Position numbers and translations under genes: made by a program
DNA from: Escherichia phage DT571/2
Direction: 5' to 3' (one strand)
Sequence record: NC_047749.1
DNA length: 64,000 bases
Notes under the pieces: model-generated
Databases searched by the model: none
The model's input: the letters and a program-made list of their open reading frames with translations, nothing else
Told to the model about the DNA's origin: nothing
Shown here: in pieces, positions 1-16,128 of the stretch
Position numbering within the stretch: the stretch's first letter is position 1
How the letters are laid out: each line of letters begins with the position of its first letter

Positions 1-96
1 ATTTTTAGCAATGCAATCTATTTCTTTTGCATCGTGCGATGCTTGACTACTAAAGCTGAAGGTAAGGGCAGCTACTAAAAGCAAAGCTGCCTTCAT
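1..96 (-). CDS. Partial CDS (N-terminus only; continues beyond window start): predicted secreted/lipoprotein-like protein with signal peptide MKAALLLVAALTFSFSSQA
   Basis: ATG at ~96 (minus) preceded by GGAG RBS; hydrophobic h-region followed by A-x-A-like cleavage site; ORF runs off the window edge. Confidence 0.35.
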   Translation of the reverse strand, partial: MKAALLLVAALTFSFSSQASHDAKEIDCIAKN

Positions 97-102
97 TCTT
101 TT

Positions 103-420
103 TTACTCCTGCCAATCGTATTCAATACGATTGGGGTTTTCTTTGTATCCCAAGTCAAGCAAATCATTACGCATAGTTTGCTTAGCTACGGGATTCGAGG
201 TTACTAGTACCACTTTCTTTGGTCTCTGCCCAAATTCTAAGAGTAAACGAAGAATTTGATAACCTTCCATACCATCTACAGCCAAATCGTTGTCGAAATA
301 AACAAAATGGCCAGTGGTATCAGTCTTATTCAGAAACTCAACAGCGGCTTCTGGGGTTCGAATGATAATGTCCATTCCGTGAAGATTACGCACATCATCA
401 ATCAAAATATGAAAAGTCAT
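103..420 (-). CDS. Stand-alone CheY-like receiver (REC) domain protein (105 aa)
   Basis: Motif order ILIDD ... TPEAAVEFL ... VYFDNDLAVDGMEGYQILRLL ... VVLVTSN ... K matches REC acidic pocket, phospho-acceptor Asp, conserved T/S and Lys; own sigma70-like promoter upstream. Confidence 0.55.
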   Translation of the reverse strand: MTFHILIDDVRNLHGMDIIIRTPEAAVEFLNKTDTTGHFVYFDNDLAVDGMEGYQILRLLLEFGQRPKKVVLVTSNPVAKQTMRNDLLDLGYKENPNRIEYDWQE

Positions 421-450
421 AATAGCCTCGTTTCATCAATTTAAAAATAT

Positions 451-479
451 ATTATACAGAGAACTTAATAAATTAGCAA
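451..479 (-). promoter_or_regulatory. Sigma70-type promoter (TTGCTA-17-TATAAT) for REC-like gene
   Basis: Consensus-like hexamers with 17-nt spacer, A/T-rich upstream tract. Confidence 0.6.
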
Positions 480-862
480 ATACATTTTTAAATTGTGAAA
501 CTAGTAAACCGATAAACAGCCTAGGGGCGCCACAGGCCATATCTTACGAGCCATGTACCTTTGATCTAGGGTTTGAATCATCAACGAATACTTTGCATCT
601 TTTAGCTTTAGAAGTTTAGAAGTTTGAGTTCTTTAAACTTTTCAGCTTTCATACTTAAATGTTGATCTTTGAAGTTGTGTCGGTAATATCAACGACTCTT
701 TGTTTTTACGTGTCAGATTAAATGTCCGATGTAATAAACATAATCTCCAATAGATTATACTTTATAGTATGGTCAGCGGTCTTATTTAACCTCGTATTTC
801 AACCGCTGCTGCGAGGTAAGATGCTTGGGCTTTCGTCTACCGATTTACTAGCTTTTAAATTA

Positions 863-1501
863 TTACTCTACTTCAATGAAAGTAGAGGCGTTAGACTCGG
901 ACAGAACAAAGTCAACATTAGTTGCAAAGTCCTGATATTCCTCGTCATGTTGTTTAATCAGCTTCTCCAGTTCCAGCGGATCAATCAAGAATGGGGTATT
1001 CTTGAGTTCCAACAGGTTGAGCTGCATTTTAACTTCATCTTCGGAAGTTTTCTTATCGCGGGTAGCCATGCTATCCTGCAAACGCTCATATTTAGCATCA
1101 AACTGTGCTTTCTGCGTATTAAACTTAACCGTAGCGGCATGGAACTGCTTACGCATATTAGCCAGCAACTGAGCTTTAAGCTCCATAGAACGCTTAGCTT
1201 CAATTGCTTCTGCAACAGTCATTTTACGAGAGCCAATCTCAACGATTGTTTCCGCATTGCTCTTAATCAATGCTGCTTTGATACGATCACGCTGGGACAT
1301 CATATCCAGCAGAGACTGGAAATCTGTCTTAATACGATTAGACAGATCTTCTACTTCGATTGCAGCGCCAACTACAACCTTATTTTTATCCTTACCTTCA
1401 CCAACAGCGATCAGAAGCTGTTGTTCAGTAGCTTTACGGATTTTAGCTTCCAGAGATTTGATGGTTGCCAGAGCACGAGTTTTAGAGATACGAGCGGGCA
1501 T
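863..1501 (-). CDS. Hypothetical protein (212 aa), predicted coiled-coil
   Basis: Long ORF, AAGGAA RBS 7 nt upstream of ATG; no recognisable catalytic motif. Confidence 0.7.
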   Translation of the reverse strand: MPARISKTRALATIKSLEAKIRKATEQQLLIAVGEGKDKNKVVVGAAIEVEDLSNRIKTDFQSLLDMMSQRDRIKAALIKSNAETIVEIGSRKMTVAEAIEAKRSMELKAQLLANMRKQFHAATVKFNTQKAQFDAKYERLQDSMATRDKKTSEDEVKMQLNLLELKNTPFLIDPLELEKLIKQHDEEYQDFATNVDFVLSESNASTFIEVE

Positions 1502-1553
1502 TGTTTATTCCTTACATGAAGTTTAAGATTTGAATTTGTTTAAAGTTGGTCTA

Positions 1554-1736
1554 TTACAGACCCATTGCCAGTAAGGTACGCAGAACAGTATCTTTACTGT
1601 TATCAATTTTAGGATTAACACGATTTAGCAGATCAAAGATTTTCTGGACACCTGATTGACGTTCAGCCATACGACGGATACCCAGATTACGAGTAGCTTT
1701 CTTACCATTTTTACGGACATTTTTAGATACTGGCAT
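1554..1736 (-). CDS. Small basic hypothetical protein (60 aa)
   Basis: AAAGGAAAAC RBS; directly downstream of tandem promoter. Confidence 0.55.
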   Translation of the reverse strand: MPVSKNVRKNGKKATRNLGIRRMAERQSGVQKIFDLLNRVNPKIDNSKDTVLRTLLAMGL

Positions 1737-1768
1737 ATTTGTTTTCCTTTTGTTGTTTTCTCAAATTT

Positions 1769-1812
1769 ATGAATATATTATACAGAATTTATGAATATAT
1801 TATACAGAATTT
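1769..1812. repeat. Perfect tandem direct repeat, 2 x 22 bp (ATGAATATATTATACAGAATTT on plus strand)
   Basis: Read directly; duplicates the -10 hexamer and initial transcribed region of a minus-strand promoter. Confidence 0.85.
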
Positions 1813-1827
1813 TGGAGCCGGAAGCAA
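1777..1827 (-). promoter_or_regulatory. Sigma70-type promoter TTGCTT-17-TATAAT with tandemly duplicated -10/initial transcribed module
   Basis: -35 at ~1822-1827, -10 copies at ~1799-1804 and ~1777-1782. Confidence 0.6.
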
Positions 1828-1828
1828 A

Positions 1829-2530
1829 TCAAATTTTCATTTTTTCGATCATAGCTGCAACACAATAGCTCTCAACTAAGGCATCGAATGCTGGGTCGTG
1901 CTTAACCGGATATATCCCGTAACGAATGGTGTCCATCTTCTCCATCTTGGCTTTTGCCCAGCTAATACCTTCGGTCTCTAGAGCCTTATAACTGTATCCA
2001 GCTTGCATCCAGAGATTACGAAGAGATCGAACATTACCCAAATTCCAGAATTTCCACGGAACTATTTCTTCATTGGTTCCAGCATGGAAAGTGTTTGCAG
2101 AGTAGATAGTCATATCAAACTCTGGGCCATTGCCGTAATATAAAGCATTTTCGCCTAGAGCCAACTCCATAATATTTTGGGTCATAGAGAAGGCAGCATG
2201 GTTAGAGCCGAGCTTATTAGTACAGTGATGTTTACCATCTCGAAAAGCAATCAGCTTTGGATTATGCTCATTCATAGCTTCCATAATGTGGAGAGCAGAC
2301 GGACTATTTTTAGCTTGATCCATCCAGAATGCTAGAGTAGATGCCGTAACTTTAGCTCCAGAATTAAGCTGGTCTTGCACATCCAAAGTAACAAACACTA
2401 GATCAGGGTCTTTATCAATTCCATGCATAGCCACAAAAGCGAAGGAAGGCATTGCGATATGAGTAGTACCACAATCTCCTGGAGTTCCTAGAGATTCAAT
2501 ATCTAACATACCAAATGGTTTTACTTTCAT
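1829..2530 (-). CDS. Putative DEDDh-type 3'-5' exonuclease (233 aa)
   Basis: N-terminal LDIESLG (Exo I D-x-E) and C-terminal H-D-P-A-F-D-A (Exo III H-x-A-x-x-D) motifs; AAAGGA RBS. Confidence 0.55.
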   Translation of the reverse strand: MKVKPFGMLDIESLGTPGDCGTTHIAMPSFAFVAMHGIDKDPDLVFVTLDVQDQLNSGAKVTASTLAFWMDQAKNSPSALHIMEAMNEHNPKLIAFRDGKHHCTNKLGSNHAAFSMTQNIMELALGENALYYGNGPEFDMTIYSANTFHAGTNEEIVPWKFWNLGNVRSLRNLWMQAGYSYKALETEGISWAKAKMEKMDTIRYGIYPVKHDPAFDALVESYCVAAMIEKMKI

Positions 2531-2558
2531 AACTTATCCTTTATTGTGTAGAAAACTA

Positions 2559-2795
2559 TTAAAGAGCTGTCTCTTTAATAGACTCCCACTTCTTGGGGTC
2601 TTTAAAACCAGGAAGCATATCTTCACTAACATCCCAGTTTTCTTCCGTAGAAAAGTCTGGCCATTCATTCCAGTTACCTTCCAGCTCTTCATACCAGGTA
2701 TCCATTACCTCGCGATTAGAAAGTCGTGTATAGTCTCTAGCGGACTTATGAGTGCTAGCACGGTTAAAATCATTCTTTGCTACAAAATTACGCAT
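2559..2795 (-). CDS. Hypothetical acidic Trp-rich protein (78 aa)
   Basis: ORF with GGAGAAA RBS; start lies immediately after terminator hairpin. Confidence 0.5.
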   Translation of the reverse strand: MRNFVAKNDFNRASTHKSARDYTRLSNREVMDTWYEELEGNWNEWPDFSTEENWDVSEDMLPGFKDPKKWESIKETAL

Positions 2796-2803
2796 AGTTT
2801 CTC

Positions 2804-2830
2804 CAAAAATATGAGGGGCTTTCGCCCCTC
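2804..2830 (-). terminator. Intrinsic terminator (GAGGGGC-GAAA-GCCCCTC + U-run)
   Basis: GC-rich hairpin followed by T-run on minus strand. Confidence 0.7.
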
Positions 2831-2837
2831 TTATCTA

Positions 2838-3353
2838 TTACTTCGCTTTACGTTTACGAGCTGGTTTAGCAGATTTACGAGCAGAATCACCCGTAAATTT
2901 AATACCCACACCATAGCACAGAGCACGAACGTTATCTTTGCTATATTCTACGCCGAAGATATTTGGCTTAACAGAACCAAACTGGCCACGAGTATCACGC
3001 AGTACATCTGCCGTTGGTTTACGCTTCTGGTTAACTGCTTTTTCGTAATCTTTCATGGCCATGCCATTACGAGGGAACAATTCAGCTCCAGCATTGAAAC
3101 TCAGTGTTACTGGAACAGATTTGTGACCGTAACCCTGTACATAGGTTACGAGGCGGACTACAGAACGAGTAGCATTCTTAGCCTTCGGCTTTTGACGAAT
3201 CGGAGCCGGACGATTCAGTGCCTGTGCAGCTTGAGCATCAGTAGGATGCTTGCGCAGGTGGCGTTCCAGACGAGCTTTGCGGTTAGCCTCAGTCTGTGGG
3301 AAAGTTTTAACTGCCGGAGCTGCTTGAGTTTTTGCGTTTTTCTGCTTAGCCAT
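2838..3353 (-). CDS. Hypothetical basic protein (171 aa), possible nucleic-acid binding
   Basis: Lys/Arg-rich N- and C-termini; own sigma70 promoter 3392-3420; terminator downstream. Confidence 0.6.
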   Translation of the reverse strand: MAKQKNAKTQAAPAVKTFPQTEANRKARLERHLRKHPTDAQAAQALNRPAPIRQKPKAKNATRSVVRLVTYVQGYGHKSVPVTLSFNAGAELFPRNGMAMKDYEKAVNQKRKPTADVLRDTRGQFGSVKPNIFGVEYSKDNVRALCYGVGIKFTGDSARKSAKPARKRKAK

Positions 3354-13789: not shown

Positions 13790-14629
13790 GTGAGGAATTG
13801 TACAGTGCGTAGATTAATTATTATTAGCGGTGCAGGTTTGAGTGTTGAAAGTGGTGTACGAGCCTTCCGTACTGATACTGCTAGTGGTAAAGCATTGTGG
13901 GATGATTATGATCTAGAAGAAGTATGTAATATTCATGCCTTTCGGGGTAATTTTTACCATAAAACCCACACGTTTTACAACAAACGTCGTGAAGAGTTAG
14001 AAACTGTTGAACCCAATCTTGCACACTTGCGTATTGGTGAATGGTATAAGAAATACCCAGGTCAAGTAGTAAACTTGACTACTAACGTTGATGATCTTAT
14101 TGAGCGTGCTGGCGTTCCACATAGTGACATTCTGCACATTCATGGATACTTAAAGGAGGTTGTTGTAGCTGATAGCTACAACAGTAGTAATAAACGAATT
14201 ATTGATGTTGGGTATAACTCTATTGACCCAGATGATTATAAATGGGTTAAACCTAATGTAGTCTTCTTTGGTGAGCATGCTCCAGCGTACGCAGAAATGT
14301 ATAATATTTTTGATGGTATTACCAGTCAAGATATGATCATTATGGTTGGTTGCTCTAACCAAGTAATTAACTTCTACTGGGAATTATTCCCTGTTCTTAA
14401 TCTGACTGCTGCAAAACTTATGGTGGTTAACTACTACGATAGTGCTCTAGCGGTGGGACCAGGCTATCAAGGTATGACTCGTAGTGAGATGTACCAACTG
14501 GAAGAACGGGGTATTCCTTACTGGGGTAAAGGTGCGGTAGATGCTTTCAGTGACCCTGATTTTATTGCTCGTGTGGAAGCCCATCTAGAGGGTAGACCTT
14601 ATATGCCGGGAAAACAGATATGTCCATAG
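13790..14629 (+). CDS. Sir2-family (sirtuin-like) NAD-dependent protein
   Basis: GAGLSVESGVRAFR (NAD-binding), TTNVDDL, catalytic HG in HIHGYL, VVFFGE; no Zn Cys4 module seen; GTG start (alternative GTG at ~13805). Confidence 0.8.
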   Translation: MRNCTVRRLIIISGAGLSVESGVRAFRTDTASGKALWDDYDLEEVCNIHAFRGNFYHKTHTFYNKRREELETVEPNLAHLRIGEWYKKYPGQVVNLTTNVDDLIERAGVPHSDILHIHGYLKEVVVADSYNSSNKRIIDVGYNSIDPDDYKWVKPNVVFFGEHAPAYAEMYNIFDGITSQDMIIMVGCSNQVINFYWELFPVLNLTAAKLMVVNYYDSALAVGPGYQGMTRSEMYQLEERGIPYWGKGAVDAFSDPDFIARVEAHLEGRPYMPGKQICP

Positions 14630-14802
14630 TTAAATCTGTGTATACACATCCCGATGATATATTTGTATGGGCGGATGGTAGTTGGTGTTATCGATGTGAG
14701 TTATGGGAAATGGACTATAAATCCGATGACTATGGTGTCATATATGTTGATACGGTTGAGTATGATATGTTCTTAGAAAGGAACAAAAATGGAAATAAGT
14801 AA
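14620..14802 (+). CDS. Small hypothetical protein (60 aa)
   Basis: Overlaps end of Sir2-like gene and start of HAD-like gene. Confidence 0.4.
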   Translation: MSIVKSVYTHPDDIFVWADGSWCYRCELWEMDYKSDDYGVIYVDTVEYDMFLERNKNGNK

Positions 14803-15295
14803 TACTCCAATTATTTTTCTAGACATTGATGGGGTGCTCAACTCGAGCATCTCCCATCACCATGCACCTGATGATGAAAAGATTTTCTTTGGAAGTGACT
14901 GGGTTTTTAAACCGCTTCTCAAGGCTTTTCAGGACTTTATTCGTCCTTCTCCAATAATGATTGTTGGGGTATCTTCATGGTTCTCTGTCAGGAATGAGGT
15001 GGAGAACGTTCAGATTATGACCAGATTAGATCTTATCGATCGTTTTCTTGGTATAACGGATTTTACTGGTGGTGGGCTATCTAGGGGTAATTCTGTTCTT
15101 CGCTTCGTCGAAAAGCATAAGCTCAAACATTGGTGTGTGCTGGATGATGCTGGTGCTATGATGTATCAGTATCCAACAGTTATAGTCAACGGTAGAACTG
15201 GAATAAATCTTCAAGACTTAAGAGCTGTTAGCTATATGTTAGAATTTAGTCCAGATCTTGAAATGTGTAAAGCCCTACAACAATTTAAGGTGTAA
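14789..15295 (+). CDS. HAD-superfamily phosphatase-like protein
   Basis: Motif I FLDIDGVLN (DxDG), motif IV VLDDAG; AGGAAC RBS. Confidence 0.65.
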   Translation: MEISNTPIIFLDIDGVLNSSISHHHAPDDEKIFFGSDWVFKPLLKAFQDFIRPSPIMIVGVSSWFSVRNEVENVQIMTRLDLIDRFLGITDFTGGGLSRGNSVLRFVEKHKLKHWCVLDDAGAMMYQYPTVIVNGRTGINLQDLRAVSYMLEFSPDLEMCKALQQFKV

Positions 15296-15297
15296 AT

Positions 15298-15726
15298 ATG
15301 TTCAATAATGTATTCTCTAAAGAAGCTAACCCAATATTGGTTAATTTTTGGCGTACTCTTCCAGCCAACCTGTACAATGAGGCTATTAATGCTCTGAAAA
15401 TATGGTGTGAGAATAATGAAATCTCCTTTGCTTTTAAGGATGAGATTGAAGAAGCTCCCTGTATTGGTTTAATTGTGCAGGTAGAGGATGGCTTTGAAGA
15501 GATTATCGGATGGAAAGAGCTGGATGAAATGGGATTGGTTTTTGCATTAAACTATAAGCTATTTATGCCCAATAAACACCGTATTGTTGTTAATTATAAA
15601 ACCAGTGAATCTCCGGGCTTTCAAGTTAATGAACATTACGGTTGGTCTTACTCACCGGAAGAAGTAAATGATGGTATCCAAAGACTTCGTCGTTTTGGTT
15701 ATCAAATTCCGGGTTTAACCGCCTAA
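15298..15726 (+). CDS. Hypothetical protein, paralogue A of tandem pair
   Basis: Shares W-x-EL-x-x-MGL-x-x-ALN-x-x-LF-x-P ... PGL core with next ORF. Confidence 0.7.
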   Translation: MFNNVFSKEANPILVNFWRTLPANLYNEAINALKIWCENNEISFAFKDEIEEAPCIGLIVQVEDGFEEIIGWKELDEMGLVFALNYKLFMPNKHRIVVNYKTSESPGFQVNEHYGWSYSPEEVNDGIQRLRRFGYQIPGLTA

Positions 15727-15735
15727 GGGGACACA

Positions 15736-16128
15736 ATGGAACAAGTATATTGGCGTCAGATTGATCCTAGTTTGGTGAAGAGTGCGGAGAAGCTGCTACA
15801 ACGTTGGTTGGGGGTAAGACAAGCCTCCTTCACTTTTCCGGAGCAGCAAATAGACGATCCCTGTGTTGGTGTTTTCCTATCAGGCTACGCTAGGGAAGTG
15901 GAATTGGATTGGAATGAATTGTCTGCTATGGGTTTAATTGTTGCACTAAATTTCTCTTTGTTCCATCCACGTGGGTTGGCAATATGTCGTGTGCCTGATG
16001 ACGGTTGTTCGCCCCATCTTTTACAGGTGGAAGATGATATTTGGGAGTACCCTCCAGATATTCTCAAAGAAGCTAAAGAACAATTAAATCGTGTTGGGAT
16101 TTATGTTCCAGGCCTGAATGATGAATGA
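15736..16128 (+). CDS. Hypothetical protein, paralogue B of tandem pair
   Basis: Homologous to 15298-15726 product; AAGGGGA RBS; followed by terminator. Confidence 0.7.
   Translation: MEQVYWRQIDPSLVKSAEKLLQRWLGVRQASFTFPEQQIDDPCVGVFLSGYAREVELDWNELSAMGLIVALNFSLFHPRGLAICRVPDDGCSPHLLQVEDDIWEYPPDILKEAKEQLNRVGIYVPGLNDE

Follow-up and report, generated by a model that had tools for sequence, protein, structure and literature searches.

A short gene near the left end of the stretch of Escherichia phage DT571/2 DNA analysed here (NC_047749.1; 64,000 nucleotides, referred to as the window) raises the question of what a phage does with a stand-alone protein that looks like the receiver domain of a two-component system. 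An earlier note on this DNA had taken the 105-aa product for a CheY-like receiver, which may serve as a phosphate sink or decoy for a host two-component or chemotaxis pathway. Our results revealed that the likeness to receivers had been rightly spotted but the function was wrongly interpreted: the protein belongs to the cREC family and is most likely a small enzyme rather than a signalling module.

The open reading frame was present with all the motifs that had been quoted for it; it belongs to a virulent, T5-like phage and lies on the minus strand (Table 1). The product begins with MTFHILIDDVRNLHG and ends with EYDWQE; ILIDD occupies residues 5-9, YFDNDL 41-46, DGMEG 49-53 and VVLVTSN 70-76. 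Its counterpart DT57C_000062, the orthologue of T5.084/T5p082, carries the label 'hypothetical protein' in the record. As had been claimed, there is no output domain, the protein consisting of a single domain only, and the gene has a consensus-like promoter of its own. The homologous site carries an annotated promoter in the T5 and BF23 records, and cREC is predicted to be driven by this early-type promoter, though in a consensus scan promoter-like sites around the gene were no more numerous than in shuffled sequence. A 17-nt inverted repeat (437-453 and 479-495, 94% complementary, arms 25 nt apart) flanks the promoter, with the -10 hexamer just within one arm and the -35 hexamer starting at the edge of the other. 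This repeat may act as an operator or simply reflect AT-rich promoter architecture. Further upstream, a 27-nt imperfect inverted repeat (491-517 and 835-861, 74% complementary) encloses 317 nt and falls in the non-coding gap of about 440 nt between T5.085 and cREC, where no feature is annotated. An Rfam search over positions 1-1600 of the window returned nothing credible, the best match being snoR83 at E = 0.46.

Downstream of cREC lies a gene for a SleB-like cell-wall hydrolase (Pfam Hydrolase_2, E = 2e-25), whose ATG is at 96-94, 6 nt away from the cREC stop. Because the spacer is short, the putative ribosome-binding site sits in the last two codons of cREC and a hairpin precedes it, the two genes are probably co-transcribed, and they may also be translationally coupled. 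The spacer (97-102) measures 6 nt here and 5 nt in the DT57C record KM979354.1, and this extra A/T is the only difference between the window and KM979354.1 in the first 3 kb.

Table 1. Features of the cREC locus and its possible partners in the window
Feature	Position	Strand	Description
cREC gene	103..420	minus	ATG-to-TAA ORF, 105 aa; T5.084 / DT57C_000062 orthologue, single minimal receiver-fold domain
Sigma-70-type promoter	479..451	minus	TTGCTA (-35), 17-nt spacer, TATAAT (-10); 10/12 consensus matches, prediction only
Shine-Dalgarno GAGG	426..429	minus	5 nt before the cREC ATG; read from the sequence
10-bp hairpin	112..134	minus	Inverted repeat within the final codons of cREC; RNA fold -12.5 kcal/mol, z = -2.4
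AGGAG	106-110	minus	After the hairpin; codons Q104-E105 (CAG GAG); putative ribosome-binding site of the SleB-like gene
Sir2-family protein	13790..14629	plus	279 aa; Pfam SIR2 E = 1e-24; intact; possible cREC partner
HAD 'Swiss Army Knife' RNA-repair-type phosphatase	14789..15295	plus	168 aa; HAD_SAK_2 E = 2.3e-20; possible partner

The family assignment was clear. The protein matched Pfam PF20274 (cREC_REC, 'cyclic-phosphate processing receiver domain') with 55.5 bits (cutoff 27; E = 9.2e-15), the match spanning profile positions 2-86 of 88, and it matched PHROG 1479 at E = 1e-29. Judged by these profile scores, the resemblance far exceeds chance. However, the Response_reg search that the earlier note had suggested as a check came out negative: the canonical profile (PF00072) gave no match even at E<=10, which rules out canonical membership, and the receiver-type PF20274 was matched instead. 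An NCBIfam search with the protein gave no matches. In a large protein collection all close homologues belonged to PF20274, and some of them were already named 'cyclic-phosphate processing receiver domain-containing protein' (NCBI or UniRef), a name that also appears in a few GenBank records of T5-like phages. Comparative genomics was the source of the family's definition (Iyer, Anantharaman, Krishnan, Burroughs and Aravind, 2021, PMC7824862; Iyer et al., 2022, PMC9503650), and in these studies cREC was predicted to be a phosphoesterase that acts on 2',3'-cyclic RNA ends or on ADP-ribose cyclic phosphate, and was reported never to co-occur with histidine kinases. Its members are described as experimentally uncharacterized (PMC9503650). 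Since the family was defined in 2021, is in Pfam and has given its name to some T5-like records, family, name and predicted role are already published and the occurrence in this phage is no discovery. Our search for literature on T5.084/T5p082, on cREC experiments and on phage receiver domains in anti-defence found only the two comparative-genomics papers; the aRES/Adpp preprint was discarded as a source on cREC, as its subject is Macro-domain phosphatases.

The family is widespread in phages. When its profile was run against 1.84 billion representative proteins, 408 clusters were retrieved at E<=1e-3, and among the best 150 of them nearly all were stand-alone proteins of about 100 aa. Positions 1-3000 of the window are 100% identical to Escherichia phage DT57C (Tequintavirus, Demerecviridae) and 80-97% identical to T5, BF23, Gostya9 and roughly 440 further genomes of T5-like phages; in some of these phages the homologous 3 kb is enlarged by an insertion of about 275 nt or 1.3 kb. 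Matches to cREC were also found in 50 Vibrio phage records, and the branch of the Nudix::cREC protein of Serratia phage BF has relatives in about 165 phage records. A metagenomic protein of 273 aa (P0029) places a T5-clade cREC behind an N-terminal segment that, judged by eye, resembles an HNH-type homing endonuclease; this fusion is probably an artefact of read-through from, or insertion of, a homing-endonuclease gene upstream of cREC. In a Caldisericota MAG (L034:4712-5014), Gly replaces the otherwise invariant first Asp (LLIGDV), and this copy may have lost activity, unless the change stems from a sequencing error. Genuine members of the family (E 1e-29 to 1e-31 with the family HMM) were also present in MAGs of Falkowbacteria (L042), Paceibacterota (L049) and Parcubacteria (L051), and the neighbours in the first and the last of these look like housekeeping genes (Met-tRNA formyltransferase, DHDPS, Y-family DNA polymerase). 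Therefore, given its occurrence in MAGs of the candidate phyla radiation, the family may not be borne solely by phages and prophages.

Structure prediction agreed with the earlier note in part. Two AlphaFold models were concordant (pLDDT 87.5 with 11 sequences; pLDDT 96 and pTM 0.88 with 60 diverse sequences). Both consist of beta1 (4-7), a 10-residue loop, beta2 (18-20), a helix (23-32), beta3 (39-42), a helix (53-62), beta4 (69-72), a helix (77-89) and beta5 (100-102). The topology b1-loop-b2-a-b3-a-b4-a-b5 thus has five strands and three helices. A receiver-like Rossmannoid fold with a conserved Asp pocket was therefore recovered, as proposed, but the full (beta-alpha)5 arrangement was not: in these models the protein is a reduced receiver, from which alpha1 and alpha5, the helices that cover one face of the sheet, are predicted to be absent. 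The alpha1 and beta5-alpha5 region is where histidine kinases and phosphotransferases dock (Spo0F-Spo0B and HK853-RR468 structures), and CheZ and FliM bind CheY at the alpha4-beta5-alpha5 face. In Foldseek searches receivers came top but were weak (best E = 4.7e-3, TM 0.5-0.6), and against viral models the closest neighbours were other cREC proteins. PDB sequence searches gave no solved relative: the family profile reached receiver domains at E 0.3-1 only, and matches to the TAL effector Hax3 were rejected as an artefact in which many weak repeat matches, each with E > 100, had been summed. A profile-profile comparison with five canonical receivers gave a probability of 78.6%; it paired D43 with CheY D57, G53 with G65, T74 with T87 and N76 with E89.

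The conserved residues were examined in 145 representatives sharing at most 50% pairwise identity. D8, D9, D43 and G53 were invariant; D45, R21 and N76 were conserved at 99%, R11 and G47 at 94% and P67 at 93%; position 74 was T or S throughout and position 44 was H or N. Within the T5 clade D8, D9, D43 and D45 do not vary. These residues cluster at the C-terminal ends of the strands. This is the usual location of active sites in such folds. Of the five signature positions of receivers, four of those read from the sequence by the earlier note were borne out: the acidic pair of ILIDD (D8/D9) directly follows beta1 in the manner of receivers, the Asp of YFDNDL is D43, at the phospho-acceptor position in the profile alignment mentioned above, and the Thr/Ser of VVLVTSN is T74. 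However, the distal Lys did not survive. K93 is variable (K 31, T 22, V 21, R 14 among the 145 representatives), and the T5 clade has Q104 at the position after beta5 that is Lys or Arg in about 80% of relatives; in this clade the codons at that place double as the Shine-Dalgarno sequence of the SleB-like neighbour. The alignments thus indicate that the receiver Lys is missing from the T5-type protein. Furthermore, R11, R21, H/N44, D45 and N76 have no equivalent among the signature residues of canonical receivers. D45 comes two residues after the putative nucleophile D43, and from the known chemistry of HAD phosphatases and receivers this spacing would resemble the general acid/base arrangement of the HAD enzymes.

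At the T5-type locus the immediate neighbours of cREC encode the SleB-like hydrolase, DUF7616 and unannotated proteins, and an adjoining gene for RNA repair or NAD metabolism was absent. In the direction in which cREC is transcribed, a cluster of tRNA and stable-RNA genes follows. Just outside the left end of the window and adjoining the RNAX stable-RNA and tRNA cluster, the T5.081 homologue (L001:2974-3408, minus strand) gave a sub-threshold YqeY-like match (GatB/YqeY-type; E = 5e-4, 20.6 bits against a cutoff of 27). Three genes upstream of cREC, the T5.087 homologue (1829-2530, minus strand) matched PF16473, the Rv2179c-like 3'-5' exoribonucleases (E = 3.5e-8; 33.8 bits, cutoff 27). The DT57C and T5 records label it 'putative metallopeptidase', RefSeq 'exonuclease', and on this match the peptidase label is probably wrong. 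T5-type and My1-type phages differ by gene rearrangement, yet in both the T5.087-type gene stays no more than about 2 kb from cREC.

Genes with a possible link to RNA repair and NAD were found about 13 kb from cREC, on the opposite strand: an intact Sir2 and a HAD_SAK phosphatase (Table 1). They match the sirtuin-plus-HAD pairing described for T5-like phages (PMC9503650). HAD_SAK was detected by tblastn at >=80% identity in 437 phage records, and its counts by organism name run close to those of cREC (Salmonella 271 vs 269, Escherichia 128 vs 128); Sir2 of the window's type also occurs in 50 Vibrio phage records. Beyond the first few kb the window is 98-99% identical to the DT57C record, and 13808-15186 differs: in DT57C Sir2 is cut to 90 aa and HAD_SAK is absent while cREC is intact. 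The window thus derives from a close relative or a variant of DT57C. As DT57C keeps cREC without HAD_SAK or a full Sir2, cooperation among the three is at most optional; drawing on the published neighbourhoods (PMC9503650) and on other loci, we regard it as plausible and non-obligatory. Directly after Sir2 and HAD_SAK follow the homologues of T5.106 and T5.107 (15298-15726 and 15736-16128, plus strand). DUF7415 was matched by the T5.106 homologue in the window and by both T5.106 and T5.107 in the DT57C copy, two stretches each; the two are tandem paralogues.

The gene contexts in other phages were more telling. In Ochrobactrum phage OC, cREC (E = 5e-22) stands between genes for a HAD_PNKP phosphatase and a T4-type RNA ligase 1 and overlaps both; a P-loop kinase comes next, and a metallophosphatase and a Macro-domain protein are close by. 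At the IMG/VR locus L016, cREC is directly followed by ORFs that appear to encode a kinase, an RNA ligase and two metallophosphatases (the Pfam counts for the scanned set including this locus hold one RNA ligase and one Metallophos). Serratia phage BF combines NAMPT, a small gene annotated as 'RNA ligase', Sir2 and a 302-aa Nudix protein with a C-terminal cREC, and on a beta-proteobacterial MAG contig (L052) SIR2 is two genes away from cREC. In KVP40-type phages a Ro-like DUF2828 protein is encoded four genes downstream. The link to RNA repair or NAD is thus present for phage OC, L016, Serratia phage BF and L052 and not adjacent at the T5-type locus. The related loci had been collected with a narrower alignment and a degenerate DNA pattern, 13 of whose 21 matches were due to chance, and the IMG/VR neighbour counts cover 13 non-redundant loci with the top 25 of 47 families listed. 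The remaining IMG/VR loci held mainly small unannotatable ORFs and nucleotide-metabolism genes, and at one IMG/VR locus the Thoeris inhibitor Tad3 lies <=3.5 kb from cREC. Neither histidine kinase nor Hpt genes were found in a limited sample, which comprised the T5-type locus, six annotated phage regions, the 13 IMG/VR loci (top 25 of 47 families) and selected neighbours at six of eight genome-contig loci. These neighbourhoods agree with those published (PMC7824862; PMC9503650), and the company of the gene in other phages points towards the healing of RNA ends and NAD/ADP-ribose chemistry. One myovirus-like IMG/VR contig deserves separate mention: in 3300038652_000127 (L024:4483-5228) a SleB-like Hydrolase_2 gene, 32% identical to T5.083, is followed after 7 nt by a cREC gene that seems to be frameshifted in a GTGTGTGTGT run, and SleB-cREC adjacency thus recurs in an unrelated genome, with the gene order reversed relative to T5.

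On this evidence we lean, by no great degree, towards an enzyme that opens a cyclic phosphate, on an RNA end or on an NAD-derived nucleotide, as part of how the phage deals with host attack by RNA cleavage or NAD consumption. In such an enzyme the acidic pocket of D8, D9 and D43 would bind Mg2+ and D43 would attack the phosphate ester; D45, two residues past the nucleophile as in the DxD of HAD enzymes, may act as general acid/base, and T74, N76, R11 and R21 may hold the phosphate and the hydrolytic water. The substrate favoured by context would be a cyclic phosphate. Candidates are the 2',3'-cyclic phosphate on RNA ends produced by host ribonucleases that need no metal, ADP-ribose 1'',2''-cyclic phosphate and related nucleotides derived from NAD. 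Acting with Sir2 and HAD_SAK, cREC might heal blocked RNA 3' ends, for example those of tRNAs, or clear by-products. However, several observations weigh against this reading. The T5-like cREC adjoins no RNA-repair or NAD gene, and no RNA ligase or polynucleotide kinase is annotated in the stretches read within positions 1-75000 of the DT57C record, a phage which retains cREC with a truncated Sir2 and without HAD_SAK. Most of the 13 IMG/VR contexts are unannotatable small ORFs or nucleotide metabolism, and the C-terminal basic residue of most relatives is missing here. A bolder form of the proposal, which we consider unlikely as it stands, is that the core cREC of T5-like phages represents a new kind of phosphodiesterase, a two-layer mini-receiver in which a receiver-type metal site and a HAD-like Asp-x-Asp would open cyclic phosphates and so neutralise the products of RNA-cleaving or NAD-consuming host defences, by healing tRNA ends or by destroying a cyclic ADP-ribose-type signal.

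The same pocket could be used without catalysis. A binder holding an immune second messenger, a 2',3'-cyclic nucleotide or an ADP-ribose derivative, and working as a sponge or small sensor, would suit a stand-alone protein of about 100 aa so abundant in phages (408 representative clusters), the more so as cREC often sits amid small unannotated early genes, a typical place of anti-defence genes, and once within 3.5 kb of Tad3. The phage sponges Tad1, Tad2 and Acb2 are of roughly this size. In addition, the helix-free sheet face in the models may allow sponge-like oligomerisation. We nevertheless find a binder improbable: four Asp conserved at 99-100% and arranged like Mg2+-dependent phosphoryl-transfer sites, together with a T/S and an Asn placed where receivers tune their hydrolysis, better suit catalysis, and the operon-like place between a phosphatase and an RNA ligase, like the Nudix fusion, suggests a step in an enzymatic pathway. 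The bared sheet face could also be an interaction surface, if the loss of alpha1 and alpha5 is modelled correctly, and the protein would then be a pseudo-receiver adaptor that makes protein-protein contacts only, modulating for example a host or phage enzyme such as the SleB-like Hydrolase_2 that adjoins it in T5-like phages and on the unrelated contig L024, with no phosphate chemistry. Pseudo-receivers typically lose the acidic pocket. In cREC, however, this pocket is the most conserved feature family-wide, and adjacency to SleB is missing in My1, in KVP40-like phages and at most other loci, which makes an adaptor more doubtful still.

The proposal of the earlier note, in which a CheY-like protein accepts phosphoryl groups and so drains or titrates a histidine kinase or the chemotaxis pathway of the host, can point to a receiver fold with D8/D9, D43 and T74 in their canonical places, and phosphorylation of D43 by small donors is chemically plausible. 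However, the protein is not CheY-like in function so far as its features tell: it belongs to a divergent family without a Response_reg match, the receiver Lys is absent, and so, according to the models, are the alpha1 and alpha5 docking surfaces. No kinase or Hpt neighbour occurs at the examined loci, nor anywhere according to the published survey (PMC7824862). A passive acceptor would leave the invariant or nearly invariant R11, R21, D45 and N76 unexplained, and the same family is found fused to Nudix and in RNA-ligase cassettes. Because docking helices, Lys and kinase partners are all missing and the family keeps enzymatic company, the sink or decoy reading is unsupported and disfavoured, and we hold it to be very improbable.

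If the preferred reading is correct, a receiver fold turned phosphoesterase would join two-component-type chemistry to RNA repair or counter-defence, and a mini-receiver phosphodiesterase, if true, would give the first demonstration in a virus of a receiver fold that serves an enzyme instead of signalling. About 440 sequenced T5-like phages carry the gene, and the ease with which T5 and its relatives can be manipulated makes them a convenient system for cREC biochemistry. A natural comparison is offered by the window, with cREC and intact Sir2 and HAD_SAK, and the DT57C record, which lacks both in intact form.

Among known systems the closest are the other cREC proteins, such as p109 of Ochrobactrum phage OC and the Nudix::cREC of Serratia phage BF. 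They have the same DD ... D-x-D ... T/S-x-N-P signature as the T5-type protein, and size, phage habitat and the lack of kinase partners are in common. However, the T5-type clade carries N44 and A47 where H44 and G47 are commoner in the family, it is without the C-terminal Lys/Arg of most members, and its RNA-repair/NAD genes are not adjacent, Sir2 and HAD_SAK lying 13 kb off on the other strand. Compared with the canonical receivers of PF00072 (CheY, Spo0F, NtrC receiver), the protein is about 20 residues shorter and lacks alpha1 and alpha5; of the signature quintet, DD, D and T are present at aligned positions and the conserved K is absent. It adds invariant or nearly invariant Arg, Asp and Asn residues, and it is without a kinase partner or an output role.

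The likeness to HAD phosphatases, for example the phosphatase domain of T4 polynucleotide kinase, is likely one of analogy: an Asp nucleophile followed two residues on by another Asp, Mg2+ on further acidic residues, a Thr/Ser contact to the phosphate and contexts of RNA-end healing would be shared. However, the DxD of cREC follows strand 3 of a receiver topology whereas that of HAD enzymes follows strand 1 of a Rossmannoid fold, and the HAD squiggle, flap and cap are missing; with no HAD family match either, membership in that superfamily was rejected. Toprim membership was also rejected, as the family has no invariant Glu and the structure matches listed were mostly receivers, none described as Toprim, and TIR membership was excluded on conserved residues and topology. 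The 2H phosphoesterases (LigT/ThpR, CPDase) come nearest in the proposed reaction, the opening of 2',3'- or 1'',2''-cyclic phosphates; like cREC they occur in phage genomes, in the neighbourhood of genes for Sir2, Nudix and RNA ligases. However, their fold and catalytic residues (two H-x-T/S motifs) are unrelated to those of cREC, and their activity has been demonstrated, whereas that of cREC is predicted.
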